This document shows, piece by piece, positions 16,754 through 64,000 of a DNA stretch of 64,000 nucleotides. Position 1 is the stretch's first letter. Each line of letters starts with the position of its first letter. The translations under genes were made by a program, and so were the position numbers. The notes under the pieces are model-generated. The model searched no databases. It worked only from the letters and a program-made list of their open reading frames with translations, and was not told the DNA's origin. The DNA comes from Squalus acanthias (lineage: Eukaryota): positions 186,001-250,000 of the forward strand of contig JASTWF010000336.1 of NCBI GenBank assembly GCA_030390025.1, written 5' to 3'.

Positions 16754-16786
16754 CACACACACACACACACACACACCCCGAGTGCG
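16754..16786 (+). repeat. (CA)11 + CCCCGAGTGCG: putative target site and left TSD of the array
   Basis: Same motif recurs at 17642, 25454, 33438, 40958 and 48557. Confidence 0.85.
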
Positions 16787-17354
16787 AGACCCAGAGGAGA
16801 GTGGCCTGGGCGGGAGGCCCAGCACGGAGAACCCCAGGCGGGGGGCCCAGGGCGGGGCGGCTGGTCGGCAGAGGTGGAGTCGGGAGATGCGGTTGCTTCA
16901 CCCCGGGTGCTCGTGGGGAATGCCGGTGCGGAGGGTCCGGTGCAGAAGGCCCAAGGTGGAAGACCCAGAGGAGAGTGGCCTGGGCGGGAGGCCCAGCACG
17001 GAGAACCCCAGGCGGGGGGCCCAGGGCGGGGCGGCTGGTCGGCAGAGGTGGAGTCGGGAGATGCGGTTGCTTCACCCCGGGTGCTCGTGGGGAATGCCGG
17101 TGCGGAGGGTCCGGTGCAGAAGGCCCAAGGTGGAAGACCCAGAGGAGAGTGGCCTGGGCGGGAGGCCCAGCACGGAGAACCCCAGGCGGGGGGCCCAGGG
17201 CGGGGCGGCTGGTCGGCAGAGGTGGAGTCGGGAGATGCGGTTGATTCACCCCGGCTGCTCGCGGGGAATGCCGGTGCGGAGGGTCCGGTGCAGAAGGCCC
17301 AAGGTGGAAGACCCGGAGGAGAGTGGCCTGGGCGGGAGGCCCAGCACGGAGAAC
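16787..17354 (+). repeat. 174-bp GC-rich tandem repeat, about 3.3 copies
   Basis: Repeat starts at 16787, 16961, 17135, 17309. Confidence 0.95.
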
Positions 17355-17641
17355 AATTGAGTGGATGGTCGGGTGGGTGGTGCCAGTGGGACTGGCGCGG
17401 AACAGGTTTCTTGGGTTATTGGAGTGGATGTTATATGTGGCATTTAGTTGGATTGTGATGGTGCTATGTGTTTGTACACTGTGGTGTTGAAATGGGTTGT
17501 TTTATGTGGAGTTAAGTGAGATGTATTATTTTAATATTAAAAAAAAGTGTGGTATTGTTTGGGGGTATTTGTACTGTATTTTGATGGATGAATGTAATGG
17601 TTTTACTATGTAATTTGTATTATTGGTTTGAATAAAAGATT
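16787..17641 (+). mobile_element. Array unit 0: tail-only copy (174-bp repeats + 3' module)
   Basis: Starts mid-repeat, ends AATAAAAGATT, flanked by CACACCCCGAGTGCG at 16772-16786 and 17642-17656. Confidence 0.85.
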
Positions 17642-18710
17642 CACACCCCGAGTGCGGCCCCAGGCCCCATTATTCGGACACCCAGGCGAGGACAGACGGA
17701 GGCAGAGGCTGAGGCTGCGAGGGACTCAGCTCAACACGGTGCTGCGTGAACGGGTGAGCGCCGTTTGCTGAGAAGAGGAGGGGAAAGGAGAGGTCTCTTT
17801 TCTCTGTGCCTAGAAGGAGAAGGAGCCACGAAGGACAGAGTGGAGACCTTTTCCACCTCCACCACGCCTGCAGCTACAGCTACAACCACAACTGCTGCTG
17901 AGGTGAGAGAGGAGAGGAGAGGAGAGAGAGGAGACCAGCAACAGCAACAGAGGGAAGCCTTTCCATCACTGCCTCCCCAACTGGTCTCCATTACGAGAGA
18001 GGGAGAGAGGGGAGAACAAGACCAACATCTGCTTGGAAGGAGGGAGAGCGAGCCTTCGAGAAGGAAAACAACATCGAGAGGTGGGTGTTAAAAAGGGCAC
18101 TCTCCAAAAGACTTTGTATTTGAGGTGGGGGGAGGAAAGAAGAAGGAGAAGACCGGGATAGCAAGGGGTGTGTGTGAGTGTGTGTGGCTCTTGCTAACAA
18201 CTCGGCCACACACACCATCAACAAGCACCCCTTGCCTATTGCTTCACATTTTAGAACATTGTTAAGACCTGGTTGTAGACTGAGCCTGGGCATCTCCAGC
18301 TTTATTTTTTCCCAGGTGAAGACATCTTCTCCCCCCACCAGAAGAACATCAACAAAGACTTTATTTATCATCGAAGAGTGCCCCCCCCCCCAGGAGGCAC
18401 CCACCCACCCACTATCCTGAGTGGCGAATAGGCCCGTGCGGCCTTCCCCCTTTCCTCCTTCCCACCCCCTCTCTCTCTCTCTCTCTCTCTCTGCCTCTCT
18501 CTAATGAGGCACCTCAAACCTTATTTATTACCCAATTGAGCAGAGGGGAGAAGGCCACTCCCAATTCCAATCATAAAAGGGAGAGGTGTGCCTTCTTTTT
18601 CTCAAAACAACCCCCTCTGCTCGGGGGAAAAGACAAAAAAAACCCAAGGCCACTTAAACATCACCCGGCCTGTGACTTGGGGTGGGTGTAGCCCTTTATA
18701 CCACCTCAGT

Positions 18711-20800
18711 ATGGCGAGCACATCTTCGCCGGCGGCGGGGCAAGCAAGGTCGTACGCGGGTGTGGCAGCCACGGCCACAGCTGGTCCCGCTGCTTCTGCT
18801 GCCCCGTCGCCTTTCAGGCTATTGACAAAAAAGCTGGGGGTGAAGAGCTACACTCACCCCAACATGACCATAGAGGCTTGCGTCAAAGCCATGGCTGGGG
18901 TAGTCGGCCCCTCAGCCATCGTTGCGGCCTCTAAAATGTACGGTAAGGCTGTGTTCTTCCTGCGGTCGGAGCGGGCGGTGTCCCTGGCCGTCACCGAGGG
19001 GCTCACCGTGGGCGGGACCTTCCTGCCGGTGGATCCGCTCGAGGCCACCGAGCAGCGACTCATACTATCGAATGTCCCGCCATTTGTTCCGGTTGAGCTC
19101 CTCCTCCCCCACCTACGTCAACTGGGGGAGGTGAGGTCGGGGATTAATCCGATCCCGCTCGGCTGCAGGGAGGCCAGCCTCCGGCACGTCTTCTCCTTCC
19201 GGCGCCAGCTGTTTATCCAGCTGGCGCGGGAGGAAGACACGGAAGGCGCATTTAGCATAACACACGAGGGGACCGCCTACCGCGTCTTCTGGACGTCGGA
19301 CGGTGTGCGGTGCCATGCCTGTAAGGAGGTGGGGCACATAAGAAAGAACTGCCCCGCCTCCAAGGCCGCCAAAGCATCTGAGGCGGCCAAGGCTGGCGCC
19401 GCCGCCGCTCCTCCCCCTGTTTCTGTCCGCACGTCTGCGACACCCGATGCGCGGTCGACGCCGGAGGTCAACGCCGTCGCGGCGTCCGGCGAAGGGGAGG
19501 GGGAGCGTCCGACTGGAAGGAAGGCGCGGAGGAAAAGCAAACACCTTCAGGCGGGTCCCCTTCACATATATGATGACTTACCCGAGCTTACGCCCCTACA
19601 CCTTGCGCGGGTGGCGGCGGAGTTCGAGAATGCGAGGGACCTTGTGCCCGGGCCTGCGGCCGCATCCGCCAAGGCGGCAAAATCGAGACCTGCGGCCGTG
19701 ACCGGGCCCGGGACCCCCGAGCAGACCGATCGACAGGGGGGAGCGGAGGTGGAGGCCTCGGTATGCATGGAGGTCTCCCAACCTTCGTGTCCCTCCTCTT
19801 CGAAAAGGAGGCGCGACATCCTGGATGAGGGGGAGGACCGTGAGGAACGGGGTCCCCCCTCGCAAGGGGAGTCGTTGCCCGCCGCGGGTGCTGCGCCCCC
19901 CCCCCACCGACACCATCACCGAGATCCGGCAGGGGCCGCCTGTCCCCCGGGAGGGCATGACAGATGAGTCTGTCCAGCCTGTGCCTCCCGGGGATGGGGG
20001 AGAGGCCCTGCTCATGGGGGGGGGCCGCGGAACTACCCGCGGTGGGGAGTTACGCTGATCCGTTGTTTCTCGCCAGGTCGGGCATCCTGGGGACCGGGGC
20101 GGGCGAGGCCGATGAGGCAGAGCCCGCCGTGTACGGTCAGGACCACTCCCAGGCACTGCTCGACCTGGTTGAGCAATATAACCAGGGTACCTGGTCCGCT
20201 GGGTCGGAGGATGGTGGCGGTGAAGGGGAAGGCCCCCTGACTCCGTCTGCGACGCTGGCGCCGGGGTTGTTGAGGGAACTGGCACTAATGTGCTCCCCGG
20301 TTTCCCTGTGCACCCCGGTGCCGGGGGCGGAGGGGGGCCCCGAGCCGCCGCCGCTTCCTGACCCGGCGCCTCTGGAGGAGCCCAGGGAGGACTCCTCTGC
20401 TGCCGATCCTGGGGGTGGGATCGGGGCAGAGGTAGGGCTGGCCGATGGCGACCCCCCGGAGGAGGACGGGGACCCGGCGGAGGACACTGAGGATGATATG
20501 GAATCCGTCGCCAGTGAGGCGGCGGATGCCCTCGTGCCCTCCTCCGGGTCCCCCCTCATCCCCGTTGTGGAACTCCGGGACTTTGTGGCCATGGGCCAGG
20601 GTCGCCAGGATATAATCCGGCTGGCCATCGATAAATGGTCGGATCTGGCGCTGCTCGTTTGCTCCGTCCGCGCCGCAGTCAAAACCATGGGCGCGGACGG
20701 GGGCGTGGGCCTGGCCGAGCGGCGTCGGATCCAGAATTTCCTCGCTGGGCTTGGAAGGGAGTGGCGGTCGACTAGCGGCCGCGCTCCCTCCTCCCGTTAG
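18711..20800 (+). pseudogene. Unit 1 ORF1, frameshifted at homopolymer runs
   Basis: C10 near 19900 and G9 near 20020 versus C9/G8 in the intact units 3 and 5; could be sequencing error. Confidence 0.75.
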
Positions 20801-20831
20801 AGTAAGGTAGAGGTTGCACTATGCTCTTGTC

Positions 20832-23800
20832 ATGAAGATAACCATAGCCAGCCTCAACATCAACGGCAGCAGAGAGGCACGCCGTAGATTTAATAACTTC
20901 TCGGTCCTTCGGGAAGGGAGGCATGCGGTGTGCTTCCTGCAGGAAACTCACACCGTTCCGGGAGACGAGGCCACGTGGCTCCTGGAGTGGCGAGGAGGGG
21001 TCAGCATGAGTCACCTCTCCAACGTTTCCGGTGGGGTGGCTATCTTGCTGGCCCCGCATTTTCAGCCGGAGATCTTGGGGGTCAAGGAGCATGTGCCGGG
21101 CCGCTTGCTCCAGGTCACTGTTCGTCTGGGGGGCGTGCCGCTCCATTTAGTGAACGTGTACGCCCCCCAGCCCGGTGCGCAGCAAGTGCGCTTCTTCGAT
21201 GAAGTGTCCGCTCTTCTGGGCACCGTCGACGTCGGCGAGTGCATCATCCTCGGGGGGGATTTTAATTGTACCCTCGAGGCGAGGGACCGTTCGGGCCCTT
21301 CGCGAAGCCTGACGGCGACGGTGAAGTTGAGGGACCTGGTCGGGTCCTTCGACTTGGTGGACGTCTGGCGAAATCTCCATCCCGACTCCAGCGCCTTCAC
21401 TTGGGTGGGGTCTGGAGGAGGAAGGTCCAGAATCGACCGCCTTTATATTTCCCGGGCGTACGTCTCCTGCGTTCCGGCGGCTTCCATGCGGCCGGTGCCG
21501 TGCACGGACCACCACCTGGTGTGGGCGGAGCTCGCTCCGTTGCAGGCGCCGGGGGGGTCCGCGTACTGGCATTTTAACAACCTGCTGCTGGAGGACGTGC
21601 GGTTCCGGGATTCGTTTCGCCGGTTCTGGGCCGACTGGAGAAGGAAGCAGGGGGGCTTCCCCTCCTTGAGGCTATGGTGGGACGTGGGCAAGGCTCACGT
21701 CCGTCTCTTCTGTCAGGAGTACGCGAAGGGGTCGACCAAGAGGCGGGAGGCCCGGGTCGGGCGATTGGAGAAAGAAGTGCTCGACCTGGAGTCCCGTCTC
21801 GGTCAAGTCGTCGAAGACCCGGCCCTGCGGAAGGTGTACGAAGAGAAGAAGGGCGCGCTGAAGGACCTGCAGCTGGTCGGGTCCCGAGGCGCGTACGTGA
21901 GGTCGCGAATCCAGTTCCTGCGGGACCTGGACCGCGGCTCCCCCTTCTTCTACTCGCTGGAAAAAAGACGAGGGGTCCGTAAGCAGCTCTTGGGGCTGCT
22001 GGCCGACGACGGATCTCTGGTCTCGGATCCGGAGGGGATCAGCGCGGGGACCCGGGCCTATTACGGGGCTCTGTTCTCTCCGGATCCGTCCAGCGAGGAT
22101 GCGCGCAGAGTTTTGTGGGAGGACCTGCCGAAGGTCGGCCCGGAGGGCGCCGAAGAATTGGACGCTCCGCTAAGTTTGGCGGAGCTGACCGGCGCCCTGC
22201 GCCAGCTCTCGAGGGGAAAGTCCCCGGGGCTGGACGGGCTGACCGTGGAGTTCCACAGGGCGTTCTGGGACGTCTTGGGGGGCGACTACGCGCGGGTCCT
22301 GGGGGAAAGTCTGGCGACCGGGGAGATGCCCCTCTCTTGGCGCAGGGCGGTTATCGTCCTGCTGCCCAAGAGGGGTGATCTCCGCCTTTTAAAAAACTGG
22401 CGCCCGGTCTCCCTCCTCAGCACGGACTATAAAATTTTTGCCAGGGCCATGTCTGCCCGCCTCGGCACCGTGCTGGCCCACATGATCCACCCCGACCAGT
22501 CCTACACGGTCCCGGGCCGGACAATCCACGACAACATCCATCTGGTCCGGGACCTGGTCCACCTTTCCCAGAGGACTGGTCTGTCGGTCGCCTTCCTTTC
22601 CCTGGATCAGGAGAAGGCGTTCGACAGGGTGGATCACGAGTATCTCTTCGGGACTCTGCGCGCATTCGGGTTCGGGACGCATTTCGTCGCCCGGATCCGA
22701 CTTCTGTACGCCGCCGCGGAGTGTCTGATTAAAGTTAACGGGTCTTTGACGGCGCCCCTTCGCTTCGGGAGGGGGGTGCGTCAGGGATGCCCCATGTCCG
22801 GTCAGTTATATGCCGTTTGCGTGGAGCCTTTCCTGCGCCTCTTGCGGAAGAGGTTGACGGGACTGGCTCTGCAAGGGCCGGGCATGGAGGTCGTCCTCTC
22901 GGCTTACGCCGATGACGTGCTCCTCATGGTCACGGATCCCGTCGACCTGCGGAGGATGCGAGAATGCCAGCAGATTTACTCGGACGCATCCTCCGCCAGG
23001 ATCAACTGGGAGAAATGTTCTGGACTCCTGGTGGGCCAGTGGCAGGTGGACTCCCTGCCGGAGGAGTTCAGGCCCTTCGCCTGGAGCACAACACACCTCC
23101 TCTACTTGGGAGTCTACCTCAGCCCTGCCGAGGACACCTGGCCGGCGAACTGGCAAGAGCTGGAGGCCAAGGTCACCGCTCGCCTAGGACGCTGGACGGG
23201 GTTGCTCCGAGTGTTGTCCTACAGGGGTCGAGCGCTGGTCATAAACCAGCTGGTGGCCGCCATGTTGTGGTACCGGTTGGTCACTTTGATCCCTCCCCCT
23301 GCGTTTGTCGCCAAGATACAGAAGATGCTCATCGACTTCTTCTGGGACAAAAGGAAGCACTGGGTCTCTGCCGCGGTTCTGTGTCTCCCGCTTAGGGAGG
23401 GCGGTCAGGCGCTGGTGTGCCTTCGCACCCAGGCGGCGACTTTCCGTCTTCAGACGCTGCAGAGGTACCTTTACGTCGAGAATCCTCCCAGATGGTGTGC
23501 GCTGGCGACGTATTTCTTCCGCCAGATGCACGGCCTCAACTACGACACGCAGCTCCTGTTTGTGGAATTGGGCCGCACGCGAGCCTACCTGTGGGAGCTG
23601 CCTGTCTTTTACCAGGAACTGCTATGGGTCTGGAACCAGGTCGCCTCCAGGCGGAGTTCTCCCCCGTCAGGAGTGGCGGCTCTCCTTCGGGAGCCGCTGT
23701 TCAGGAATCCGCACCTCCACGTCCGACGGATCGGCTGGCTGGCGGAGGGCAGGGCTGTGCCAGGCAAGGTGACCAGAGTCAGGGACCTGCTCGATGGCGG

Positions 23801-24731
23801 AGGAGCGGGCTGGATGGCGCCAGAGGAGTTGGCGCGGCGCCTCTCCTGGGCAGACGTCTGGCGCGCGGCCAAAGCCATCGAGTTGCTGAAAGTGGCACTG
23901 GGCCCGGACTCCACTAGGTGTATCGAGGAGGCTCAAGTACGTGGGGCGATCCCGTCCGAACTGACCTCCGTTCGGACGGAATTCCTCATCGGCGCACGGC
24001 CCCGAAACCCCTCTCGGGAACCGGCGCCTCACAACTTGAGCCGTCTCGGGGAAATGCCCTCTGTGCCCTTCAGTTCTGCACGGAGGGGTTTCCTGTACGG
24101 GCTGCTCCTGCACACTTTCCACTTTGTCATCTTCGCCTGCCGTCCGGACACGCCTTGGCGTGCCATCTTGCCGTCCGGCGGAGGCGAAGGTCCCCAATGG
24201 AGGGCTCTCTATGCGGGAGTACTCCCCTTTTCTATTGGGGACATGGCCTGGAGGGTGTTGCACGGAGCAGTCCCGTGCAATCGGTTTTTAAGTAGGTTCA
24301 CGGACTCCCAGGCCGCCTGTCTTTTTTGCGGCCTCGAGGAGTCCGTGTTCCACGTTTATGTGGAATGTGAGAGGTTGCAGCCCCTCTTTGAATATTTGAA
24401 GGGGCTGCTCCTCGCTTTTTGGTTGCACTTCAGTCCCACGCTCCTGATCTACGGTCACCCGGTGCGGAGGGGAGAGAGCAAGTCGGAGGACCTCCTCGTA
24501 GGACTGCTCCTGGGCCTGGCCAAAGTGGCCATTAACAGGTCCAGGCAGCGGGCGGTCGAGGGGGTCGTTCGGCCCAATTGCCTGCCTCTCTTCCGCGGCT
24601 ATGTTCGCGCCCGGGTGGCCCTGGAGATGGAGCATGCGGTGTCCGCCGGCACACTTGAAGCCTTCCGAGACCGGTGGGCGCCGCAGGGACTGGAGTGCAT
24701 CGTTTCCCCGGGAAATGTTATTTTAATTTAA
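20832..24731 (+). CDS. Unit 1 ORF2 (APE-RT-Zn finger), intact
   Basis: GDFN, TDHH, YADD, CLFCGLEESVFHVYVEC. Confidence 0.95.
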   Translation: MKITIASLNINGSREARRRFNNFSVLREGRHAVCFLQETHTVPGDEATWLLEWRGGVSMSHLSNVSGGVAILLAPHFQPEILGVKEHVPGRLLQVTVRLGGVPLHLVNVYAPQPGAQQVRFFDEVSALLGTVDVGECIILGGDFNCTLEARDRSGPSRSLTATVKLRDLVGSFDLVDVWRNLHPDSSAFTWVGSGGGRSRIDRLYISRAYVSCVPAASMRPVPCTDHHLVWAELAPLQAPGGSAYWHFNNLLLEDVRFRDSFRRFWADWRRKQGGFPSLRLWWDVGKAHVRLFCQEYAKGSTKRREARVGRLEKEVLDLESRLGQVVEDPALRKVYEEKKGALKDLQLVGSRGAYVRSRIQFLRDLDRGSPFFYSLEKRRGVRKQLLGLLADDGSLVSDPEGISAGTRAYYGALFSPDPSSEDARRVLWEDLPKVGPEGAEELDAPLSLAELTGALRQLSRGKSPGLDGLTVEFHRAFWDVLGGDYARVLGESLATGEMPLSWRRAVIVLLPKRGDLRLLKNWRPVSLLSTDYKIFARAMSARLGTVLAHMIHPDQSYTVPGRTIHDNIHLVRDLVHLSQRTGLSVAFLSLDQEKAFDRVDHEYLFGTLRAFGFGTHFVARIRLLYAAAECLIKVNGSLTAPLRFGRGVRQGCPMSGQLYAVCVEPFLRLLRKRLTGLALQGPGMEVVLSAYADDVLLMVTDPVDLRRMRECQQIYSDASSARINWEKCSGLLVGQWQVDSLPEEFRPFAWSTTHLLYLGVYLSPAEDTWPANWQELEAKVTARLGRWTGLLRVLSYRGRALVINQLVAAMLWYRLVTLIPPPAFVAKIQKMLIDFFWDKRKHWVSAAVLCLPLREGGQALVCLRTQAATFRLQTLQRYLYVENPPRWCALATYFFRQMHGLNYDTQLLFVELGRTRAYLWELPVFYQELLWVWNQVASRRSSPPSGVAALLREPLFRNPHLHVRRIGWLAEGRAVPGKVTRVRDLLDGGGAGWMAPEELARRLSWADVWRAAKAIELLKVALGPDSTRCIEEAQVRGAIPSELTSVRTEFLIGARPRNPSREPAPHNLSRLGEMPSVPFSSARRGFLYGLLLHTFHFVIFACRPDTPWRAILPSGGGEGPQWRALYAGVLPFSIGDMAWRVLHGAVPCNRFLSRFTDSQAACLFCGLEESVFHVYVECERLQPLFEYLKGLLLAFWLHFSPTLLIYGHPVRRGESKSEDLLVGLLLGLAKVAINRSRQRAVEGVVRPNCLPLFRGYVRARVALEMEHAVSAGTLEAFRDRWAPQGLECIVSPGNVILI

Positions 24732-24753
24732 TGCACTCCAAGTTGTCCGCTTC

Positions 24754-25165
24754 GCAGAAGGCCCAAGGTGGAAGACCCGGAGGAGAGTGGCCTGGGCGGG
24801 AGGCCCAGCACGGAGAACCCCAGGCGGGGGGCCCAGGGCGGGGCGGCTGGTCGGCAGAGGTGGAGTCGGGAGATGCGGTTGCTTCACCCCGGGTGCTCGT
24901 GGGGAATGCCGGTGCGGAGGGTCCGGTGCAGAAGGCCCAAGGTGGAAGACCCAGAGGAGAGTGGCCTGGGCGGGAGGCCCAGCACGGAGAACCCCAGGCG
25001 GGGGGCCCAGGGCGGGGCGGCTGGTCGGCAGAGGTGGAGTCGGGAGATGCGGTTGCTTCACCCCGGTGCTCGTGGGGAATGCCGGTGCGGAGGGTCCGGT
25101 GCAGAAGGCCCAAGGTGGAAGACCCAGAGGAGAGTGGCCTGGGCGGGAGGCCCAGCACGGAGAAC
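24754..25165 (+). repeat. 174-bp tandem repeat, about 2.4 copies
   Basis: Same unit as 16787-17354. Confidence 0.9.
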
Positions 25166-26519
25166 AATTGAGTGGATGGTCGGGTGGGCTGGTGCCAGTG
25201 GGACTGGCGCGGAACAGGTTTCTTGGGTTATTGGAGTGGATGTTATATGTGGCATTTAGTTGGATTGTGATGGTGCTATGTGTTTGTACACTGTGGTGTT
25301 GAAATGGGTTGTTTTATGTGGAGTTAAGTGAGATGTATTATTTTAATATAAAAAAAAAGTGTGGTATTGTTTGGGGGTATTTGTACTGTATTTTGATGGA
25401 TGAATGTAATGGTTTTACTATGTAATTTGTATTATTGGTTTGAATAAAAGATTCACACCCCGAGTGCGGCCCCAGGCCCCATTATTCGGACACCCAGGCG
25501 AGGACAGACGGAGGCAGAGGCTGAGGCTGCGAGGGACTCAGCTCAACACGGTGCTGCGTGAACGGGTGAGCGCCGTTTGCTGAGAAGAGGAGGGGAAAGG
25601 AGAGGTCTCTTTTCTCTGTGCCTAGAAGGAGAAGGAGCCACGAAGGACAGAGTGGAGACCTTTTCCACCTCCACCACGCCTGCAGCTACAGCTACAACCA
25701 CAACTGCTGCTGAGGTGAGAGAGGAGAGGAGAGGAGAGAGAGGAGACCAGCAACAGCAACAGAGGGAAGCCTTTCCATCACTGCCTCCCCAACTGGTCTC
25801 CATTACGAGAGAGGGAGAGAGGGGAGAACAAGACCAACATCTGCTTGGAAGGAGGGAGAGCGAGCCTTCGAGAAGGAAAACAACATCGAGAGGTGGGTGT
25901 TAAAAAGGGCACTCTCCAAAAGACTTTGTATTTGAGGTGGGGGGAGGAAAGAAGAAGGAGAAGACCGGGATAGCAAGGGGTGTGTGTGAGTGTGTGTGGC
26001 TCTTGCTAACAACTTGGCCACACACACCATCAACAAGCACCCCTTGCCTATTGCTTCACATTTTAGAACATTGTTAAGACCTGGTTGTAGACTGAGCCTG
26101 GGCATCTCCAGCTTTATTTTTTCCCAGGTGAAGACATCTTCTCCCCCCACCAGAAGAACATCAACAAAGACTTTATTTATCATCGAAGAGTGCCCCCCCC
26201 CCCAGGAGGCACCCACCCACCCACTATCCTGAGTGGCGAATAGGCCCATGCGGCCTTCCCCCTTTCCTCCTTCCCACCCCCTCTCTCTCTCTCTCTCTCT
26301 CTGCCTCTCTCTAATGAGGCACCTCAAACCTTATTTATTACCCAATTGAGCAGAGGGGAGAAGGCCACTCCCAATTCCAATCATAAAAGGGAGAGGTGTG
26401 CCTTCTTTTTCTCAAAACAACCCCCTCTGCTCGGGGGAAAAGACAAAAAAACCCAAGGCCACTTAAACATCACCCGGCCTGTGACTTGGGGTGGGTGTAG
26501 CCCTTTATACCACCTCAGT

Positions 26520-28611: not shown

Positions 28612-28642
28612 AGTAAGGTAGAGGTTGCACTATGCTCTTGTC

Positions 28643-32542: not shown

Positions 32543-32564
32543 TGCACTCCAAGTTGTCCGCTTC

Positions 32565-36592: not shown

Positions 36593-36623
36593 AGTAAGGT
36601 AGAGGTTGCACTATGCTCTTGTC

Positions 36624-48009: not shown

Positions 48010-48031
48010 TGCACTCCAAGTTGTCCGCTTC

Positions 48032-48270
48032 GCAGAAGGCTCAAGGTGGAAGACCCGGAGGAGAGTGGCCTGGGTGGGAGGCCCAGCACGGAGAACCCCA
48101 GGCGGGGGGCCCAGGGCGGGGCGGCTGGTCGGCAGAGGTGGAGTCAGGAGATGCGGTTGCTTCACCCCGGGTGCTCGTGGGGAATGCCGGTGCGGAGGGT
48201 CCGGTGCAGAAGGCCCAAGGTGGAAGACCCAGAGGAGAGTGGCCTGGGCGGGAGGCCCAGCACGGAGAAC
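48032..48270 (+). repeat. 174-bp tandem repeat, about 1.4 copies
   Basis: Same unit. Confidence 0.9.
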
Positions 48271-52883: not shown

Positions 52884-54507
52884 TGTAGAATTCGCAATTA
52901 TCGCGATTTCATTTTAATAAGGAGAGAACACAAGTTTCGTTCAAAAACAGCTTTTATTTCAGCGGAATGCTGTCAGGTTTAAATTGGACACAAGCAGCCT
53001 GTAAAATGGCCGCCGCACCGCGTGACAGAACATTCGAGACTTTTCAGCAGGCAGACAAGATGGCGTTCCAATAAACATTTTTTTGCAGGATCGATAACGA
53101 TTCAGCACAGTGAAGACAATACACAGGACATTATGGGTTTACAGTATAAACATCGATACTGGAATCGGTCTCCCAGGTACAAAGGAAAGCCATCAAGGGC
53201 CCATCCAAAGGACATTAATATGTAAACTCCCAACGGCTCTACGATGAGAGAGCCGTTAGCAGGTAGTTATACAGGACACTTGGAAGCCCCAAACCCCTCC
53301 AGGGGGAACACCGACCGATTTAACAATGGGAGAAATATTAGCAGGTACTCAAACATTCAGGAGTAGCCCCGAAACCCATTAAGGACAGAGATCACCCATA
53401 CAGGACATTTTGGGCGCCAAACCTTAAACAAAAGAATGGACATTGTAGTTGGGCGGGAAACGGAAGAACTGTGCACTATAATTGCAGGCCCAAACCGTCC
53501 ATTCGCTCTCTTGCGCTTGCTCTTTTGCTCTTGACTCTTGCCGCTTGCTGCTGTTATCATCGTGGCTGCTCCTGTGTTTTATCCGGTCGATTCGTAACCT
53601 CGTGGCTGCTCCTGGGTAAAAGACTGTTGCAAAGACCTATGTTGGTAGCTGGCAGCGGAACCGAAGGCCCGGGATGAGATGAGATGAGATGAGAGGAGAA
53701 GAGAAGAAGACCTTATCCATCGCCACGGTCAGTAAATCCCGACCGCGCCTGTAGGTCGATCAGCCAAGTCTTCTCGACAGGAAGTTTTCTTCTTTAACAA
53801 GACATATTGCATCGACGATAACTGGACTGTGCAAACACATCGTATCAGTGATATTGACAACGGTGCTCCTCGACTAAACTGTAAAGTCCACCAACAGAGG
53901 TCTTCACTACAGCGGACGGTCCAGCCGACTGACCGAGCAGCAGAAGCAGTAAACAAGTGGGACCAGGAGATCTCCTGACCAACACGTGGGTGCTGCGGTG
54001 AAAAACATCCGATCAGCTATTCGGGATTTCTCCGAGTTATTACGAGTGGTGAGCATGAGTCTCGGGATCCTACGAAGCTAGTTTTAGGATAGTTATTGAT
54101 AGGGGAGGGTTTAAAGTTTAAGGATATTTGTAATGTGTGCCCTATTTACGTTGTGCTGGTCGTTCCTCGTTTCCCTAAGAGTGATTATAACTGTTTGTAA
54201 GATTGTACTGTCATTAATCTGTGCATATGACATGTATTTCATAATTTTAAGTATCATGCAATAAAGATTTTCCATTTCGTACCGTTCAAACCAAGTCTAC
54301 ATGAGTTTTATCTCCATTACTGCTCTCGCATCTAAGTCCAGTGTCTAGAACCGTAAGGGAGAGTGATTCGAACCACTCACAGGGGTGTCTAGTGTTCCCA
54401 GACTGGCTGGAGACCAGGCCTAGACCCGCACTGACATACAGGCTGCACAGAGCCGCGTGAACCTCACAGGCTACGAGACACGCAGGGTCAGGAGAGGATC
54501 CCTTACA
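52884..54507 (+). repeat. 5' LTR (1624 bp)
   Basis: TGTAGAA...CTTACA; TATAA 53477-53481; AATAAA 54260-54265. Confidence 0.97.
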
Positions 54508-54511
54508 GAAA

Positions 54512-56323
54512 ATGGCGACCGCGGCAGGACACTGGCAGCGAGAGGGTAGTGTGTTAGATTTTGGAATGACTGTACGAAATGTGATGCAGGAAAAGATAGC
54601 GGATTACGTATTTGGAAAGGTTAATCTAACGAAAAAGTGGATAAGCGAACTGTTAGCGGATAAGAGCCCACTAGAGGCAGCTGAAAGGTGGACGGATAGT
54701 AAGGAGCATAAAAAGGCAGTTGAGAAAGCAGTCTGGCTTATGTGCTACAAAAGGCAGGTTCAGATTTCAAACCAGACCAATACAGCGCTAACAGCTCGAA
54801 TCAAGCATTTAGAGGAGGAAATGGAGGAGAAGGTTTCTGGAGGGGAGGTGCTCATTAAGAATTTAAATGAGTTACGCCAGGAAAGCCAGGAAGTCTCCAG
54901 TTACCTTAAAACAAGGGTAGAGTATCTCGAGTGCCAGATCACTGAAGCAAAATTGAACGAGAGTAGGATGAAGGAAAGATGTAACCGCCAAGCTGCCCAG
55001 ATAAGAACTCAAGAAGAGAGCTTAATGGGGGTTAGGTCGGCGTATAAGTTGGCCCTTGAGGATAAGTTTCAGGGAGCCGACCATAGCGCCTGCCAAAAAG
55101 AGATAGAGAGCCTCAAAAAGGCCGTGAATAATGCGAACGGCATGGTGTGCCTTATTAATCCGTTGGCACGCCAGCCGCTAGTAAATGAGAGATTTAGAAA
55201 TTCCCCACCAAGTAAAGCAGAAGAAGTAGTAGCCACTGCGCCCTCCGCGCCACCCAGCTATTCAGAAACCTGGGTTAGGGGGGAAGCAACGGAAGAAACA
55301 AAAGAGCCCGTTGAAAAGGAAGTAGAAAAGGGATCGTTGTATCCAGTAACGGGGATTAAAAGGGGCCCAAGCAGAAACGGTGGGGAAGAACCGGGGGATC
55401 TCCTCGGACAGCTGGTGTTGCCTCACAGTTCACATCAGCTGAGAGCCATGATAAACCACGTAAGGAAGCTGACCGAGATAGACGACCCTTCCGTACATTT
55501 TAGGGAAGTTGAGCAAGCCGCAGCCATCAACGGCTGCGATGATGGGGAGACAGCAAAAATGCTGCTGTTCTCTTTAGATAGCTCGGTCCTTCAGTGTCTC
55601 TCAGGCAATAGCAAGAGGGGTAATAAAAGTTATGAGGAATTGAAAAATGAGGTCCTAGAAGTAGTGGGAGCGAACGACGGAGGTCCGTTTGCTAGAGTGG
55701 GACAGACAGTGCAGATGGAGGGAGAACCCCCGAAGGTTTTTGCCGACAGGCTGTGGCCAGTATATGAGCGCAGCTGTCTAGGTGCGCCCGAGCGCGAAGA
55801 TGTGGAAGGCGCCGCTTTAATTCATTGGCTTAGGTGCATAATAGCCAACAGTTTACCAGCCGTTAGAGAGCAGGCAAAAGCCTGGTTCGATCCCAATGAC
55901 CTCAACCTTACGGAAGAGTCGGTCTTGAATCGACTCACGTTAGGTTACCGTAACATAAGGGGTATGACGACACGTCCCTTTAAGGGAAGAGTACATGAGG
56001 TACGACCCGCAGCCCCGGCTCAAAGAGAGTGGCATCAGGAGGGTAATCGCGCCCCACAGGCAAGTAATGCCTGTTACGGGTGTGGGAAGACAGGGCACTG
56101 GCGCAAGCACTGCAGGAACCCTTGGAAGGATTCCAAGGATAAAAATCCCGTGGTCCGAGCCCAGGCGCCTGTCCCGCCTAAGGAAGCAAAGGCACCCACC
56201 TCTCCCGACGACCTCGAAGCAGTGTTAGGAGCCATGCGCAAGATGGTTTTGAATGCGCGTGGACAGGTGGCGGTCGCAACCGGCCCCGTAGGTGCCGCAG
56301 GACCGTCTAATAGTGCCCCATGA
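54512..56323 (+). CDS. gag: Gag-like polyprotein, 603 aa
   Basis: Position after PBS, coiled-coil N-terminal half, PSAPPSY (55241-55261), CYGCGKTGHWRKHC knuckle (56072-56113). Confidence 0.9.
   Translation: MATAAGHWQREGSVLDFGMTVRNVMQEKIADYVFGKVNLTKKWISELLADKSPLEAAERWTDSKEHKKAVEKAVWLMCYKRQVQISNQTNTALTARIKHLEEEMEEKVSGGEVLIKNLNELRQESQEVSSYLKTRVEYLECQITEAKLNESRMKERCNRQAAQIRTQEESLMGVRSAYKLALEDKFQGADHSACQKEIESLKKAVNNANGMVCLINPLARQPLVNERFRNSPPSKAEEVVATAPSAPPSYSETWVRGEATEETKEPVEKEVEKGSLYPVTGIKRGPSRNGGEEPGDLLGQLVLPHSSHQLRAMINHVRKLTEIDDPSVHFREVEQAAAINGCDDGETAKMLLFSLDSSVLQCLSGNSKRGNKSYEELKNEVLEVVGANDGGPFARVGQTVQMEGEPPKVFADRLWPVYERSCLGAPEREDVEGAALIHWLRCIIANSLPAVREQAKAWFDPNDLNLTEESVLNRLTLGYRNIRGMTTRPFKGRVHEVRPAAPAQREWHQEGNRAPQASNACYGCGKTGHWRKHCRNPWKDSKDKNPVVRAQAPVPPKEAKAPTSPDDLEAVLGAMRKMVLNARGQVAVATGPVGAAGPSNSAP
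54513..54530 (+). promoter_or_regulatory. Primer-binding site, tRNA-Arg(UCG)
   Basis: TGGCGACCGCGGCAGGAC is complementary to GTCCTGCCGCGGTCGCCA, the 3' end of a vertebrate tRNA-Arg-TCG as I recall it. Confidence 0.85.
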
Positions 56324-57484
56324 CTAGAGCCCACGCAGCCTGCCTACCTGTGTCCTTTTAAAAGACACGCACAGGAGGGGGTCTGCGGTGAGGAGGCCAG
56401 GTTAAAAGAGCAGGCCTTGCGGGAGGAGAACGCCCGCTTAATAGGGAAAATAGATGGGCTGGAAGGGCAGCTTAGAGAGCAGGCCCTGCGGGAGGAGAAT
56501 GCCCGAGAAATGGGAAAGTTAGACGTGCTCAGGCTAGAAGGGCAGCTTAGAGAGATAAAAGCAGCCTACAGGGTAGCCAAAAGCCGGGAGCATGAGGTTT
56601 TAAAACAGGATAGAAATCTGCAGCCTCCAGCAGGTGAGATTTCACAGAAACAAGCAGGGGCGGTGGCCTGTCTTAAGGGAGGGGCCAGACCTGCGAGTGG
56701 GGAAGCACAGCCCCAGGTAGGACCACAAGGCACACAGGCAGGCATAGCAGCTTGCATCAGGGGAAGGGACATCCCGGACGATCATGCAGCGTTTTTCTGG
56801 AGTTGGGGGTTAGATGACGAAGAACCCAGGGTACCCTGGTCAGATGAGGATAGTGCAGATGAGCATAGTGATGATGACGGGTGGTTTCAGAGGAACGGTC
56901 TGGAAGGATTGGGGCCGCTAGGTAGAGATCCATACGGGGTGGACACACAAGCTGCAGGTCCCGACAGCAGGAGGAAGGAGCTAGAGGAGGCCGGGCCAGC
57001 CGCTATGTGGTTCCCAGAGGTGTGGCCGCCCGCTTTGAACGTCCAGTCCTCAGGGGAGGCAGAGTTCGCGAGTGAAGGGCCGCCTGCTGGGCCGAGCAGG
57101 GCGGGGCCCCGAACTGCCAGCCCCGAGGTTAGGGAGGCGGAGTCAGCGGAGGCGGGGCTGGCGCCTGTGATGGAACCCCAGGTCATCCCGTTGAAGGTCT
57201 CGGGACCCGGTCCGTCCGTCACGGAGCCCCCGCCCATAGCAATTCCCCGTAGGTCAAGCAGAGAACCCCAGCCCAGGAAGATGTGGTCAGGTCCCCAGGC
57301 TGCCCCAGGACGTAAGTTTCAGGTTAAGATAACCCGGGTAGAGACAGGCCACATCGAAGCAGTAACAGGCTGCGGCAGATCAGAGGAAAGGGTCAGCGCA
57401 GCAACAGGCTGCGGCAGATCAGAGGGAAGGGTCAGTGCCCTCCCACCGTCGGGAAGAGCTCGCAGCAGCCTTCTCAGGATTTAA
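56324..57484 (+). CDS. ORF X: unknown protein in frame with gag, probable readthrough extension
   Basis: 386 sense codons directly after the gag TGA; coiled-coil, acidic and Pro-rich segments; no PR/RT/RH/IN motifs seen. Confidence 0.6.
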   Translation, partial: LEPTQPAYLCPFKRHAQEGVCGEEARLKEQALREENARLIGKIDGLEGQLREQALREENAREMGKLDVLRLEGQLREIKAAYRVAKSREHEVLKQDRNLQPPAGEISQKQAGAVACLKGGARPASGEAQPQVGPQGTQAGIAACIRGRDIPDDHAAFFWSWGLDDEEPRVPWSDEDSADEHSDDDGWFQRNGLEGLGPLGRDPYGVDTQAAGPDSRRKELEEAGPAAMWFPEVWPPALNVQSSGEAEFASEGPPAGPSRAGPRTASPEVREAESAEAGLAPVMEPQVIPLKVSGPGPSVTEPPPIAIPRRSSREPQPRKMWSGPQAAPGRKFQVKITRVETGHIEAVTGCGRSEERVSAATGCGRSEGRVSALPPSGRARSSLLRI

Positions 57485-57768
57485 AGGGGCCGCCCTGAGA
57501 ACGGGCGGCATTGTAAAGTTATTAGTTTAAGGTTTTAAGTTTTAGTTTAAAGTTTTAAGTGGTTTTAATAAGGTTAAGTTTGTAGTGTTTGTAACAGAAA
57601 ACGATAAAATGATGGGAGTTTTAAGGCTAGGTTTAGAGGAAGTCTATTTAGCAAACGTTGAAGTTTACGTGAGGCGAGGTCAGGGGACCCGCTCACCCTT
57701 CACAAAAGCCAGAGACTTTTTGCGAGGCTGGCTACCTCATTCTATCTGATCACAGGAACCAAGGAAGG

Positions 57769-60106
57769 ATGGAACGACTCATAGTATTGCTCGCGGCAAT
57801 CGGATGTGGATTGGCCTATCGGGGCCTCACCAAGGATGTCGTGGTGTTTGGATGTTCCGGGGACACGGCCCCCATCGCGGTGGATGGGACCGGGAGACGG
57901 AAGGCAGAAGGGACCAGCACCTATTTCCACAAGGGAAGGTGGCCAGGATGGCTGGGAACGAACTCAACGGAGTATTCCAGCACATCGGGGTTCGCCTACA
58001 AAGAGACTTCTTTAATGTGCCCCAAAGTACGGATCATCGCACCCAGGATCAGCGTCACCGTCGGCAAACGGATTTGTCTGACCTGCAGTGGGAATGTCCC
58101 ATTGAGCCGATGGTGGTGGCTGCGAAAGCTGAGCAAAACTATGAGGAACTCTTCGGTTGAGTGGGAGCGACTGGGTAATAATACCCATCGGACAATTACG
58201 GGGACAGATGGACAAGTGAAAGTCTGTTGGGACAAATGGTGGGAACCAGATGAGGGGATTTATGTTTGTATGTGGGGGTCAAAGTACGTTTGCCCCAAAG
58301 GCATCTCCATATTCTTTATTAACCAGTGGCAGGATAACGGACAGGGGATGAGGTGGGATGCGAGCACCAGGGGGTGCGGAGCCCCATACTCTCCGATCCC
58401 AGTAAATGCCACTGAGCTCATTACGCGCCCACGCAAAGCCCCGCCCACGATTCCGGTAGTTCTAACTGAGGAAGAAGGGTGCCCTAAAACTAGTAAGGGA
58501 CCCGGGAACGGTTTGGTACTGGTCCCCACAGACCAGATACTATTTCAGGGGGTACATTACGCGGTGGCCTCGGTGATTTTAAATCTCACTGAGGTACGGT
58601 TACCAGAGTGGTGCCCCAAAAAGACGGAACAGTTGTACCAGATCCTGTTGACCAAGATGTTCAGGCAATTTTACGAGTTTGATTTTGCAGAAATCGATAA
58701 GACAAGTTTATACACCGCACCGCAGGAAGTTTTGGACCAAGTAGGGAGGCAAAGAAGGGGTTTGGTGAACGATGCGTTCACTGCTTTTAACACAGGGACA
58801 TCTGTGGTCAACGCTCTAGACAGTGTGGAGCTGCAGACCCAGATTAATGGTTTAAAAACACAGTTAAAGGATATTCTTACAGATGAGAATAAAGTGGTAG
58901 GGTCGGGTCTGCACGAGGACCAAGCCATGACACTACACTTAAAAGAGATTATAGCAGAGCTGGAGAAACAGGCGCGTACGGTAAATGCCCTGATTAGGGA
59001 AGATCGGAATGCATCCGATCAAGCTGCGCAGAACGAGGTGTGCGTGCTTTACGGGGCGTGGTTACTGGGCGAGGGCCGCAGTAAAACAAGGTTTGGTCCC
59101 GTCCTGGATAAGTAACAAACACCTGCGGGCGCTCCACCCTTTTCAGAATGCATTAAGTCCGTGCCAGCTCAGGCTAGCTTCAGAAGCTTACCCAGTCCCC
59201 GTGGACTGCGGACGTTCAAACCATACTATTATGGGAATAGTATTACGCATGCCGGTTTTGGGCAACACAGCAAAGCCCGCCCCGGTATATCGGGTAGAGA
59301 ACATTGGTGTCATTCAGGGGGGAGCCCACATTCGTTATGCAGCGGTTCCACCTTACGTCATCCGCTGGGAGCAAACGATGACAGGTACAGATCTCTCTGG
59401 TTGTCGTGGCAGGGGAGCACACATAATACTGTGCCCCCAGCACTTGAATGCCTTTTTAACACCACAGTGCGGGTTCAGAACGGCTGGCGCCAAGTCCATG
59501 AATTGCACCATGGAGGCAATGGCACAAGATCATGTGCCTCCGCAGGTAGCATACATCGGGGGTGGAACATATTGTGTTACCACTGCAGCGCAACACTACC
59601 AGCATGGAAACCGTAGCCGGTGTCCGGTGAGTGACAGCAGTTTCTGTTTTAAACCCAGGGCTGAAGTTCAAGTAGCACAACAGCGAATTATCCCAATCCC
59701 TGAACCATCCACTGTTCATCTCACAGTAAAAGAGAGTTTTACCGACTTGCAGCGATTTGTCGCACATTTTGGGTACCTCATTCCCCCTCTCCCCGAGCAT
59801 TTAACCAAACTTCTAAAAGCCGTCGCGGTGTCACAAAAGCATTTCTATACATTAGAACAGAAAACCGTCGAGATAGGTACAGACATTTTGGACATAGTGG
59901 TTCCACCGTGGTGGAATCTGTTCACGAATATTGAAGTGCCCTCATGGGTCAGAATAGCCTCCCACATTTTAGTCGTCTGTCAAGTGTTTATTGTAGTATA
60001 CCTTTTGTTCATACATTGTAAAAGAGACAAGCGCCTCACCAAGCATGAGAACACGGGAGAGTGGCGAGAACGTTACGTGCGCGTGCACGATGAGAGCGCA
60101 GTGTAA
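57769..60106 (+). pseudogene. env: Env glycoprotein (signal peptide, Ig-like domain, class I fusion protein, TM), frameshifted near 59080
   Basis: MERLIVLLAAIGCGLA, CLTC..W...DEGIYVC, furin site RQRR 58747-58758, heptad repeat, Cys-rich region, TM ILVVCQVFIVVYLLFI. Confidence 0.85.
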
Positions 60107-60521
60107 TGGGAAGATGGCGTCACTCCCGCTCGCCACGTGCGCCGCGGAAGTTTGTACTCAGTGTAAATACGTTGGAAACTCGACATGTTTAAGAGTCGGG
60201 ATTTGTTTATTTTGGTGATGGTGTTGATTGTTTGGTTTTTGGGTTTTGTTTTTCCTTCCCTTGAATAAAAGACAAATATACAGGTGATGCGTGAGGTATC
60301 GGCCTGGTTACGCCGGGAAGGAAAACAAGTGGTGTAAGTTTAAGGGCAAATGATGCCTACGGTGATATAAAGTGTGATTTTTTTCTTGGGAAATGAGGAC
60401 GACACAGAGACCCTAGTGAAGTTAAAATTTTATGGGATTAATTTACTGGATTCGGAGTGAAATCGAGATAAGATTGCTCACCACTGAGATTTTTGATACG
60501 ATAAGCGGAGTTATTCGCATC

Positions 60522-60533
60522 AACAGGAGGGAC
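60522..60533 (+). promoter_or_regulatory. Polypurine tract
   Basis: AACAGGAGGGAC immediately before the 3' LTR. Confidence 0.75.
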
Positions 60534-62157
60534 TGTAGAATTCGCAATTATCGCGATTTCATTTTAATAAGGAGAGAACACAAGTTTCGTTCAAAAACAG
60601 CTTTTATTTCAGCGGAATGCTGTCAGGTTTAAATTGGACACAAGCAGCCTGTAAAATGGCCGCCGCACCGCGTGACAGAACATTCGAGACTTTTCAGCAG
60701 GCAGACAAGATGGCGTTCCAATAAACATTTTTTTGCAGGATCGATAACGATTCAGCACAGTGAAGACAATACACAGGACATTATGGGTTTACAGTATAAA
60801 CATCGATACTGGAATCGGTCTCCCAGGTACAAAGGAAAGCCATCAAGGGCCCATCCAAAGGACATTAATATGTAAACTCCCAACGGCTCTACGATGAGAG
60901 AGCCGTTAGCAGGTAGTTATACAGGACACTTGGAAGCCCCAAACCCCTCCAGGGGGAACACCGACCGATTTAACAATGGGAGAAATATTAGCAGGTACTC
61001 AAACATTCAGGAGTAGCCCCGAAACCCATTAAGGACAGAGATCACCCATACAGGACATTTTGGGCGCCAAACCTTAAACAAAAGAATGGACATTGTAGTT
61101 GGGCGGGAAACGGAAGAACTGTGCACTATAATTGCAGGCCCAAACCGTCCATTCGCTCTCTTGCGCTTGCTCTTTTGCTCTTGACTCTTGCCGCTTGCTG
61201 CTGTTATCATCGTGGCTGCTCCTGTGTTTTATCCGGTCGATTCGTAACCTCGTGGCTGCTCCTGGGTAAAAGACTGTTGCAAAGACCTATGTTGGTAGCT
61301 GGCAGCGGAACCGAAGGCCCGGGATGAGATGAGATGAGATGAGAGGAGAAGAGAAGAAGACCTTATCCATCGCCACGGTCAGTAAATCCCGACCGCGCCT
61401 GTAGGTCGATCAGCCAAGTCTTCTCGACAGGAAGTTTTCTTCTTTAACAAGACATATTGCATCGACGATAACTGGACTGTGCAAACACATCGTATCAGTG
61501 ATATTGACAACGGTGCTCCTCGACTAAACTGTAAAGTCCACCAACAGAGGTCTTCACTACAGCGGACGGTCCAGCCGACTGACCGAGCAGCAGAAGCAGT
61601 AAACAAGTGGGACCAGGAGATCTCCTGACCAACACGTGGGTGCTGCGGTGAAAAACATCCGATCAGCTATTCGGGATTTCTCCGAGTTATTACGAGTGGT
61701 GAGCATGAGTCTCGGGATCCTACGAAGCTAGTTTTAGGATAGTTATTGATAGGGGAGGGTTTAAAGTTTAAGGATATTTGTAATGTGTGCCCTATTTACG
61801 TTGTGCTGGTCGTTCCTCGTTTCCCTAAGAGTGATTATAACTGTTTGTAAGATTGTACTGTCATTAATCTGTGCATATGACATGTATTTCATAATTTTAA
61901 GTATCATGCAATAAAGATTTTCCATTTCGTACCGTTCAAACCAAGTCTACATGAGTTTTATCTCCATTACTGCTCTCGCATCTAAGTCCAGTGTCTAGAA
62001 CCGTAAGGGAGAGTGATTCGAACCACTCACAGGGGTGTCTAGTGTTCCCAGACTGGCTGGAGACCAGGCCTAGACCCGCACTGACATACAGGCTGCACAG
62101 AGCCGCGTGAACCTCACAGGCTACGAGACACGCAGGGTCAGGAGAGGATCCCTTACA
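60534..62157 (+). repeat. 3' LTR (1624 bp)
   Basis: Copy of 52884-54507 at offset 7650; no differences noticed by eye. Confidence 0.97.
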
Positions 62158-64000
62158 GGGCTGCTGGCCGACGACGGATCTCTGGTCTCGGATCCGGAGG
62201 GGATCAGCGCGGGGACCCGGGCCTATTACGGGGCTCTGTTCTCTCCGGATCCGTCCAGCGAGGATGCGCGCAGAGTTTTGTGGGAGGACCTGCCGAAGGT
62301 CGGCCCGGAGGGCGCCGAAGAATTGGACGCTCCGCTAAGTTTGGCGGAGCTGACCGGCGCCCTGCGCCAGCTCTCGAGGGGAAAGTCCCCGGGGCTGGAC
62401 GGGCTGACCGTGGAGTTCCACAGGGCGTTCTGGGACGTCTTGGGGGGCGACTACGCGCGGGTCCTGGGGGAAAGTCTGGCGACCGGGGAGATGCCCCTCT
62501 CTTGGCGCAGGGCGGTTATCGTCCTGCTGTCCAAGAGGGGTGATCTCCGCCTTTTAAAAAACTGGCGCCCGGTCTCCCTCCTCAGCACGGACTATAAAAT
62601 TTTTGCCAGGGCCATGTCTGCCCGCCTCGGCACCGTGCTGGCCCACATGATCCACCCCGACCAGTCCTACACGGTCCCGGGCCGGACAATCCACGACAAC
62701 ATCCATCTGGTCCGGGACCTGGTCCACCTTTCCCAGAGGGCTGGTCTGTCGGTCGCCTTCCTTTCCCTGGATCAGGAGAAGGCGTTCGACAGGGTGGATC
62801 ACGAGTATCTCTTCGGGACTCTGCGCGCATTCGGGTTCGGGACGCATTTCGTCGCCCGGATCCGACTTCTGTACACCGCCGCGGAGTGTCTCATTAAAGT
62901 TAACGGGTCTTTGACGGCGCCCCTTCGCTTCGGGAGGGGGGTGCGTCAGGGATGCCCCATGTCCGGTCAGTTATATGCCGTTTGCGTGGAGCCTTTCCTG
63001 CGCCTCTTGCGGAAGAGGTTGACGGGACTGGCTCTGCAAGGGCCGGGCGTGGAGGTCGTCCTCTCGGCTTACGCCGATGACGTGCTCCTCATGGTCACGG
63101 ATCCCGTCGACCTGCGGAGGATGCGAGAATGCCAGCAGATTTACTCGGACGCATCCTCCGCCAGGATCAACTGGGAGAAATGTTCTGGACTCCTGGTGGG
63201 CCAGTGGCGGGTGGACTCCCTGCCGGAGGAGTTCAGGCCCTTTGCCTGGAGCACAACACACCTCCTCTACTTGGGAGTCTACCTCAGCCCTGCCGAGGAC
63301 ACCTGGCCGGCGAACTGGCAAGAGCTGGAGGCCAAGGTCACCGCTCGCCTAGGACGCTGGACGGGGTTGCTCCGAGTGTTGTCCTACAGGGGTCGAGCGC
63401 TGGTCATAAACCAGCTGGTGGCCGCCATGTTGTGGTACCGGTTGGTCACTTTGATCCCTCCCCCTGCGTTTGTCGCCAAGATACAGAAGATGCTCATCGA
63501 CTTCTTCTGGGACAAAAGGAAGCACTGGGTCTCTGCCGCGGTTCTGTGTCTCCCGCTTAGGGAGGGCGGTCAGGCGCTGGTGTGCCTTCGCACCCAGGCG
63601 GCGACTTTCCGTCTTCAGACGCTGCAGAGGTACCTTTACGTCGAGAATCCTCCCAGATGGTGTGCGCTGGCGACGTATTTCTTCCGCCAGATGCACGGCC
63701 TCAACTACGACACGCAGCTCCTGTTTGTGGAATTGGGCCGCACGCGAGCCTACCTGTGGGAGCTGCCTGTCTTTTACCAGGAACTGCTATGGGTCTGGAA
63801 CCAGGTCGCCTCCAGGCGGAGTTCTCCCCCGTCAGGAGTGGCGGCTCTCCTTCGGGAGCCGCTGTTCAGGAATCCGCACCTCCACGTCCGACGGATCGGC
63901 TGGCTGGCGGAGGGCAGGGCTGTGCCAGGCAAGGTGACCAGAGTCAGGGACCTGCTCGATGGCGGAGGAGCGGGCTGGATGGCGCCAGAGGAGTTGGCGC

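Follow-up and report, generated by a model that had tools for sequence, protein, structure and literature searches.

How does a retrotransposon come to be stacked six copies deep, head to tail, beside the 5′ end of its own sister family, and to which sequence does the short motif at every junction belong? The question is raised by 64,000 nucleotides of Squalus acanthias DNA (GenBank assembly GCA_030390025.1, contig JASTWF010000336.1, positions 186,001 to 250,000 of the forward strand; this whole stretch is called the window below, and positions are counted from its first letter). It holds an array of a Tx1-clade long interspersed nuclear element (LINE), family A, next to one copy of a sister family, B. 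The motif is part of a 33-bp block, and this block sits inside a third repeat, here called Z, not in B heads. The reading that we prefer, at roughly even odds (a probability of about 0.5), is that A is a target-primed LINE using a 15-bp site native to Z, that a copy of the site at its 5′ end lets units stack, and that the array here goes back to a single founder in B.

Families A and B each have an open reading frame (ORF) 2 with an AP-type endonuclease and a reverse transcriptase, and a separate zinc-knuckle ORF1. In unit 1 of the array Pfam reports Exo_endo_phos (2e-12), RVT_1 (1.4e-36) and, below the cut-off, zf-RVT (2.1e-05); zf-CCHC in ORF1 has an E value of 8.7e-4 in A, just under the cut-off, and of 1.5e-4 in B, above it. 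The A ORF2 protein is 51% identical to that of Xenopus Tx1L over 1303 aligned residues, and partial matches to shark and ray proteins, at 70-74%, point to a cartilaginous fish. In a quick tree of 21 proteins (A, B and 19 picked from 120 listed matches, without a named L1 outgroup) A and B cluster with Tx1L and one turtle protein, with a Shimodaira-Hasegawa-like approximate likelihood ratio test (SH-aLRT) value of 95. Family A is a Tx1-clade LINE of the Tx1L lineage. Its ORF2 differs from that of B at 273 of 3900 nucleotides, a DNA identity of 93%, and the endonuclease regions are 88% identical as protein. The 3′ untranslated region (UTR) of A, made of 174-bp repeats and an AT-rich tail, has no counterpart in B.

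Self-comparison and a motif search give six A units in the same sense, head to tail, from 16787 to the window end at 64000, beyond which the array continues. The features at issue are these.

10049 to 16779, reverse strand: the copy of family B, with an in-frame stop in ORF1 (14760-14762), an open ORF2 (14005-10106) and a short 3′ UTR
16754 to 16786, forward strand: the array's left edge, where B's (CA)11CCCC is joined to GAGTGCG; the complete 15-bp site is at 16772-16786
16787 to 17641, forward strand: unit 0, a 5′-truncated A, an 855-bp 3′ fragment with 3.3 copies of the 174-bp repeat and the AT-rich tail
17642 to 17674, forward strand: the 33-bp Z block, being the 15-bp motif of the target-site duplication (TSD) and the 18-bp target-derived leader of A
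17657 to 25453, forward strand: unit 1, full-length A with a structured 5′ UTR, 2.4 of the 174-bp repeats and the AT-rich tail; ORF1 starts at an ATG at 18711 and has shifts in two homopolymer runs, ORF2 (20832-24731) is open
25469 to 33437, forward strand: unit 2, full-length A, ORF2 open, 3.4 repeats, (CA)3 at the tail junction
33455 to 40957, forward strand: unit 3, A with an open ORF1 (790-aa frame), an in-frame 462-bp deletion in ORF2 and 3.4 repeats
40973 to 48556, forward strand: unit 4, A with an altered leader (22-bp loss), an open ORF2, about 1.4 repeats and (CA)1 at the tail junction
48570 to 64000, forward strand: unit 5, A with a 1-bp deletion in ORF2, split by a 9.3-kb long terminal repeat (LTR) element and leaving the window

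The junctions lie at 16772 (within the (CA)11 of 16754-16775), 17642, 25454, 33438, 40958 and 48557. All six have the 15-bp motif, exact in five of them; that at 40958 carries a single C>T change, and just 3′ of this copy comes the 22-bp loss, flanked by two short direct repeats. The tails of units 0-4 end in GAATAAAAGATT, followed by two, two, three, two and one CA and then by the motif. The whole 33-bp block recurs at 25454, 33438 and 48557 and, altered, at 40958. Within the window the 8-bp core of the motif, CACACCCC, is confined to four junctions and to the minus strand of the heads of units 1-3, and so the pattern at the junctions is not due to chance. Unit 0 has the motif on either side as its TSD and, being 5′-truncated as well, carries the marks of target-primed insertion. 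The first-pass annotation of this DNA had described the six same-orientation units, the CA counts and the truncation of unit 0 inside a 15-bp TSD, and all of this is borne out, with the motif copy at 40958 degenerate. It had also noted that A's own homologous 5′-UTR position differs from the site, which is so: units 1-3 read GATAGCAAGGGGTGTG there, and units 4-5 instead have an 8-bp deletion.

Where the junction motif comes from

Contigs from four public runs, out of 22 listed, were mapped to window positions 17190-18460 (X1 and X2 from organism A, X10 from organism B, X14 from organism C), and what follows on their loose ends concerns the best 24 of 188. Contigs starting at 17642 have one constant GC-rich left flank ending GCTGCA in X1 (12), X2 (9) and X14 (1), which is neither A's tail nor B's head. 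Others leave the window sequence at 17674, for one constant flank starting AAAACACTC, in X1 (6), X10 (1) and X14 (1); they part from the window 18 bp past the motif, not at the motif end. The loose ends listed include no (CA)n flank of B before the motif and no break at the motif end (17656). Because a constant left flank that is not B's and a constant right flank that is not A's bound it, the 33 bp at 17642-17674, motif plus 18 bp, lies inside Z. A's 5′ end carries at least 18 bp identical to Z, and since these are the next 18 bp of Z after the motif, a full-length A insertion would rebuild the 33-bp site at its 5′ junction.

A spike of contig depth is limited to the bins at 17620-17705. Expressed as a 33-bp block, the excess is about 94, 176, 30 and 26 times the depth of A's head in the four runs, and in each of the four a depth model with such a block forecasts the neighbouring bin to within about 15%; contig depth, when summed, does not give a copy number and shows only that Z is much more abundant than A's head. 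Relative to the AT-rich tail family at large, Z depth is 1.54, 0.94, 1.10 and 1.18 in the four runs and so about equal in three of them; this may reflect no more than run depth and was not used.

As to the identity of Z, its flanks have no match within three mismatches in the 64-kb window, the one Rfam family that reaches its gathering score there is a histone stem-loop, and positions 16400-18800 yield chance-level matches only and no transfer RNA. A literature search with the 16-nt motif on either strand turned up no paper containing it, and exact-pattern scans gave no match in metagenome contigs for the tail of A or the left flank of Z, nor in viral contigs for the 33-bp block. Judged by eye, the Z flanks and the block could form an imperfect hairpin with the site near its loop. 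Homology of Z's right flank to the start of A's 3′ UTR (17 of 23 letters at 24734-24756) is unsupported, 132 of 300 shuffles being equally good. A plain (CA)n microsatellite was dropped as the target, because the Z site itself has only three CA and A's own (CA)nCCCC is never used.

B and Z have in common only the 10-bp CACACACCCC; in other words, B's (CA)11CCCC mimics 10 bp of Z. The first-pass annotation had the first copy of the motif continue B's (CA)11, and this is right for the left 10 bp; the remainder is not B's 5′ region. At the array edge B's 5′ UTR ends at GGGG(TG)11. In A the 5′ UTR is a long hairpin (z score -5.2) with its 5′ arm upstream of GGGG(TG)n, and B's 3′ hairpin arm pairs with that upstream arm of A at -51.4 kcal/mol (A's own pair, -48.7), whereas B's inner arm and the stretch that at present lies on the 5′ side of GGGG in B give -13.7, compared with -23.4 in A. 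As B retains a 3′ hairpin arm whose 5′ arm is absent here, its real head would go on with other sequence. Sister-family contigs, among those listed, match A at 18093-18144 and are deeper there than A itself, and B's true 5′ UTR probably continues with a homologue of this region that is missing at the locus. A caution is that B's head including the motif also folds well (z score -7.7), with a 6-bp GCACTC pairing with the far arm. The same 10 bp occur on the minus strand of the A heads of units 1-3, and no insertion is found there; since these copies were not hit, the right half of the motif matters.

It is unlikely, yet has to be reckoned with, that the array grew in a true Z copy and that B's head became joined to it through the 10-bp CACACACCCC, either when a 5′-truncated B inserted and removed part of its target or through a deletion afterwards; B itself would never have been a target. 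In favour of this, the motif is native to Z, neither an element-borne motif nor an off-target hit would be required, and the mimic sites in A's own heads are indeed unhit. The price is a Z copy near B's landing site and in the right orientation, and neither Z flank is present in the 64-kb window.

Insertion or duplication

In the preferred reading, with its founder in B, the array grows by repeated insertion, and the differences among the units bear on this directly. Pairwise, units 1-5 differ by 0.26-1.06%; none are identical and the closest are 1 and 2 (0.26%). The 174-bp repeat is present in at least 3.3, 2.4, 3.4, 3.4 and about 1.4 copies in units 0-4, and unit 0 has as its first repeat copy a type that holds this place in none of units 1-4. 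Tandem formation by insertion leaves as its marks a target duplicate, found at all six junctions, and distinct 5′ ends, found in the truncation of unit 0 and the 22-bp loss of unit 4. Unequal exchange alone predicts identical junctions and near-identical units; these are not seen, the units diverging as above and the five junctions having three lengths, a variety that copying of a (CA)2 run would hardly produce.

In ORF2 the units differ by 22 nonsynonymous and 18 synonymous changes, while 12 mutation models lead one to expect a nonsynonymous share of 66-75% (P 0.005-0.095); the ORF2 of unit 3 alone, chosen after seeing the data, has 4 nonsynonymous to 9 synonymous (P 0.001-0.010). This synonymous excess points to descent of the units from different active source elements. 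Because the CA counts vary, unit 0 is truncated within a TSD, the units are non-identical and the changes of unit 3 are mostly synonymous, repeated insertion is favoured over pure duplication as the explanation of the array. Two models had been put forward in the first pass. That of one insertion followed by tandem amplification fits worse, given the varied CA counts, the truncated and TSD-flanked unit 0 and the non-identical units. That of a LINE repeatedly targeting a sister LINE survives in half: the motif acts as an insertion site and repeated insertion is favoured, but the flanks are those of Z and not of a sister LINE.

A mixed history, with two or three insertions up to the stage of a dimer or trimer and the other units arising by gene conversion or unequal crossing-over, we regard as improbable. 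Neighbours do share variants, with 17 single-nucleotide polymorphisms (SNPs) common to units 4 and 5, four to 2 and 3 and two (18055 and 23044) to 1 and 2, and units 1 and 2 also have in common two ORF1 homopolymer shifts, which may be assembly errors; moreover, the R1 array of Drosophila is ascribed to a double insertion followed by unequal exchange (PMC5932611). Such a history has to contend with the lack of any identical pair, as even units 1 and 2 differ in junction CA and repeat count, and with the need for separate reverse-transcription events to explain the three junction lengths, the synonymous excess and a truncated unit flanked by a TSD of its own. The adjacency of similar units is not significant and so is uninformative, both main pairs being adjacent by chance in 24 of 120 orders (hand count).

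Very improbable is that A regularly targets B heads in antisense, B heads bearing the full 15-bp site as the first pass had it: the array here does start in B's (CA)11CCCC, Tx1 families do target other mobile elements (PMC4494074), and the contig flanks are indirect evidence from the best 24 of 188 loose ends, but in three runs the motif has, among the loose ends listed, the left flank of Z, and none of those listed begins at 17656, the GAGTGCG half misfits B's hairpin, and the sister-family depth at A 18093-18144 suggests that B-like heads continue with that homologue.

A proposed mechanism and its difficulties

If A does use the Z site and founded the array once in B, its endonuclease would nick in the CA run of the site and reverse transcription would be primed there; a second-strand cut after GAGTGCG, 13-17 bp on, would give duplications of 13-17 bp and variable CA counts. 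The RNA leader would reach back into the motif, and the cDNA end might anneal to the target, as proposed for R2. One off-target founder would have entered B's (CA)11CCCC, the 10-bp mimic of Z, in antisense, installing a complete site. Later copies would mostly have entered at the left end, beside B, with units 1 and 0 the youngest. Because a (CA)3 junction requires a site with at least three CA, that is, the left end, unit 2 would predate units 1 and 0. Private SNPs in the region common to units 1-5, after dropping eight sites without unit 5 sequence, number 3, 5, 17, 11 and 21 in that order, rising away from B.

In the window, which is one locus only, all five tails end at the motif. In X10, from organism B, an A-type tail contig (depth 74.5, one letter different) passes from CAC into CCCAATCG, and X1 has a tail-to-tail joint with letters beginning like the CCCAATCG site (depth 62.7). 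Together with the differing TSD of a related tail and the mini-element at B's 3′ end, both described below, these contigs suggest that the lineage inserts at several sites, with CAC at the nick or close to it.

Several points weigh against the preferred reading. A's specificity is not single, the contigs showing Z plus a second site. The leader's identity to Z is seen only for the 18 bp after the motif, the motif itself being no more than a putative part of the leader; no listed contig piece joins A's unique head to Z's left flank with 31 letters per side. The antisense (CA)nCCCC of A in units 1-3 was never hit, making a bare mimic a poor target. Five of the six units are near full length, which is high for independent insertions. 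The shared-variant sets of units 1 and 2 and of units 2 and 3 conflict, and recombination or conversion between some units is therefore likely on the pattern of variants. As for the age gradient, it is unpolarised and weak, since 5 of 120 orders do as well.

Variant copies appear in the contigs too. The second-site joint of X1 returns to 17324, which suggests tandem tail-only copies of about 330 bp. In X2 a joint from 17759 to 17247 (2 contigs, depth 48) leads from A's first 100 bp straight to the 174-bp repeat, and could represent an internally deleted, non-autonomous A derivative. A-type head and tail depths are alike in X10, and this and the X2 joint bear, indirectly, on whether the fusion of ORF2 and tail is confined to this locus, which the first pass had named as a refuting condition. 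A second head variant, with three adjacent changes at 17722-17724, is dominant in X2, and the 17736 allele of units 1-4 is not among the alleles listed for any of the four runs. A related tail in the window, at 2052-2585 on the minus strand, has yet another TSD of 15-16 bp, distinct from the array motif; it belongs to a short element with an AT-rich tail about 85% like A's and with different simple repeats upstream, and the AT-rich tail family of this element is far commoner than A in all four runs.

Neighbours, known systems and meaning

Two further features adjoin the array or B.

9944 to 10048, no strand assigned: a palindromic mini-element abutting B's 3′ end, with inverted arms in its sequence
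52884 to 62157, forward strand: the LTR element in unit 5, with a 4-bp TSD and a pair of LTRs (1624 bp, TG...CA) that are identical to each other

The mini-element has no Rfam match at gathering score; by resemblance it is a putative Penelope-type tail with a hammerhead-like core. The LTR element is a passenger, outside the targeting system. Its ORFs are a gag-like one with one CCHC knuckle (chance-level PDB matches), one further ORF and two overlapping ones called env-like for their leader and hydrophobic end. No reverse transcriptase and no Pfam or atlas assignment was found in it, and it is very recent and apparently non-autonomous. Elsewhere in the window a histone H1 gene (7351-9800, forward strand), with a Pfam Linker_histone domain and the 3′ stem-loop recognized by Rfam, is split by an element on the minus strand (about 7710-9385) that has a GIY-YIG domain and a 14-bp TSD. 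A LINE ORF at 3752-5824 on the reverse strand, with an endonuclease and a partial reverse transcriptase, is unrelated to the array and, by its tail, presumably CR1-like.

Among relatives, Tx1L has as its target in Xenopus laevis the piggyBac-type element Tx1D (PMC4494074, PMC1950540). A resembles it in lying at a fixed site in another repeat, and the ORF2s group together; unlike Tx1L, A has Z as its target, 174-bp tandem repeats in its 3′ UTR and a six-unit stack, and the beta-hairpin loop of its endonuclease is three residues shorter than the RDGH loop of Tx1L. The crocodilian Tx1-Mar, Tx1-9_AMi, Tx1-8_Crp and SINEU favour fixed positions in mobile elements, in either orientation (Kojima 2015, PMC4494074), the crocodilian Tx1 targets being Mariner, Harbinger or LTR elements; SINEU is often tandem, and the 5′ extension of SINEU-2B weakly resembles its Mariner target. 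The criterion used there for target specificity is one sequence type in more than 20% of a family's flanks. Those targets are DNA transposons and LTR elements, and an array seeded in a sister LINE is absent from the parts of that paper covered here.

Tandems are known from Utopia elements (PMC4640811), and the R1 array of Drosophila melanogaster has double-insertion tandems with 33-nt target duplications (McGurk and Barbash 2018, PMC5932611). Like R1, A is a site-specific LINE with an AP-type endonuclease whose units are head to tail with a target duplicate between them (33 nt in R1, 33 bp of Z in A), and in both 5′-truncated members mark independent insertion; R1, in contrast, has a ribosomal DNA target and unequal exchange after double insertion, while A's units are non-identical and its junction lengths vary. 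The 5′ end of R2Bm holds 27 nt of target sequence, thought to pair with the target when the 5′ junction forms (PMC6895275). A's 5′ end likewise contains target sequence, though the leader observed in A is the sequence downstream of the TSD, unlike that of R2Bm, and R2 differs from A in being an element with a restriction-like endonuclease that is co-transcribed with ribosomal RNA and trimmed by a ribozyme. No ribozyme was found by Rfam at gathering score or in a search of 16400-18800. In the literature search neither this shark family nor its site came up in any paper; Repbase, journals behind a subscription and the PMC4494074 supplements, which may list it, lay outside that search.

Tx1 targeting of transposons, tandem stacking and target-derived leaders are already published, and what is new here is the target. 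The system is of a known kind, to which a target and a testable pair of families are added. As natural tools for targeted insertion, site-specific LINEs attract interest, and how the 5′ end is joined and how targets change are open questions. If the preferred reading is right, A and B are two very closely related families that land at different sites, and the A locus shows a target-derived leader seeding a new array at an ectopic site. It is conceivable, though we think it somewhat doubtful, that A exports its own target, its 5′ leader being a copy of the landing site, such that one stray hit in a 10-bp mimic, here the 5′-UTR hairpin of a sister LINE in antisense, makes a perfect site and starts a one-sided, self-feeding array, and that sisters with ORF2s of 93% DNA identity use at least three sites, namely Z, the second, CAC-starting site and a Penelope-type tail. 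Were that true, the A/B lineage would be a natural series for mapping how the endonuclease and the leader of a LINE switch targets jointly.

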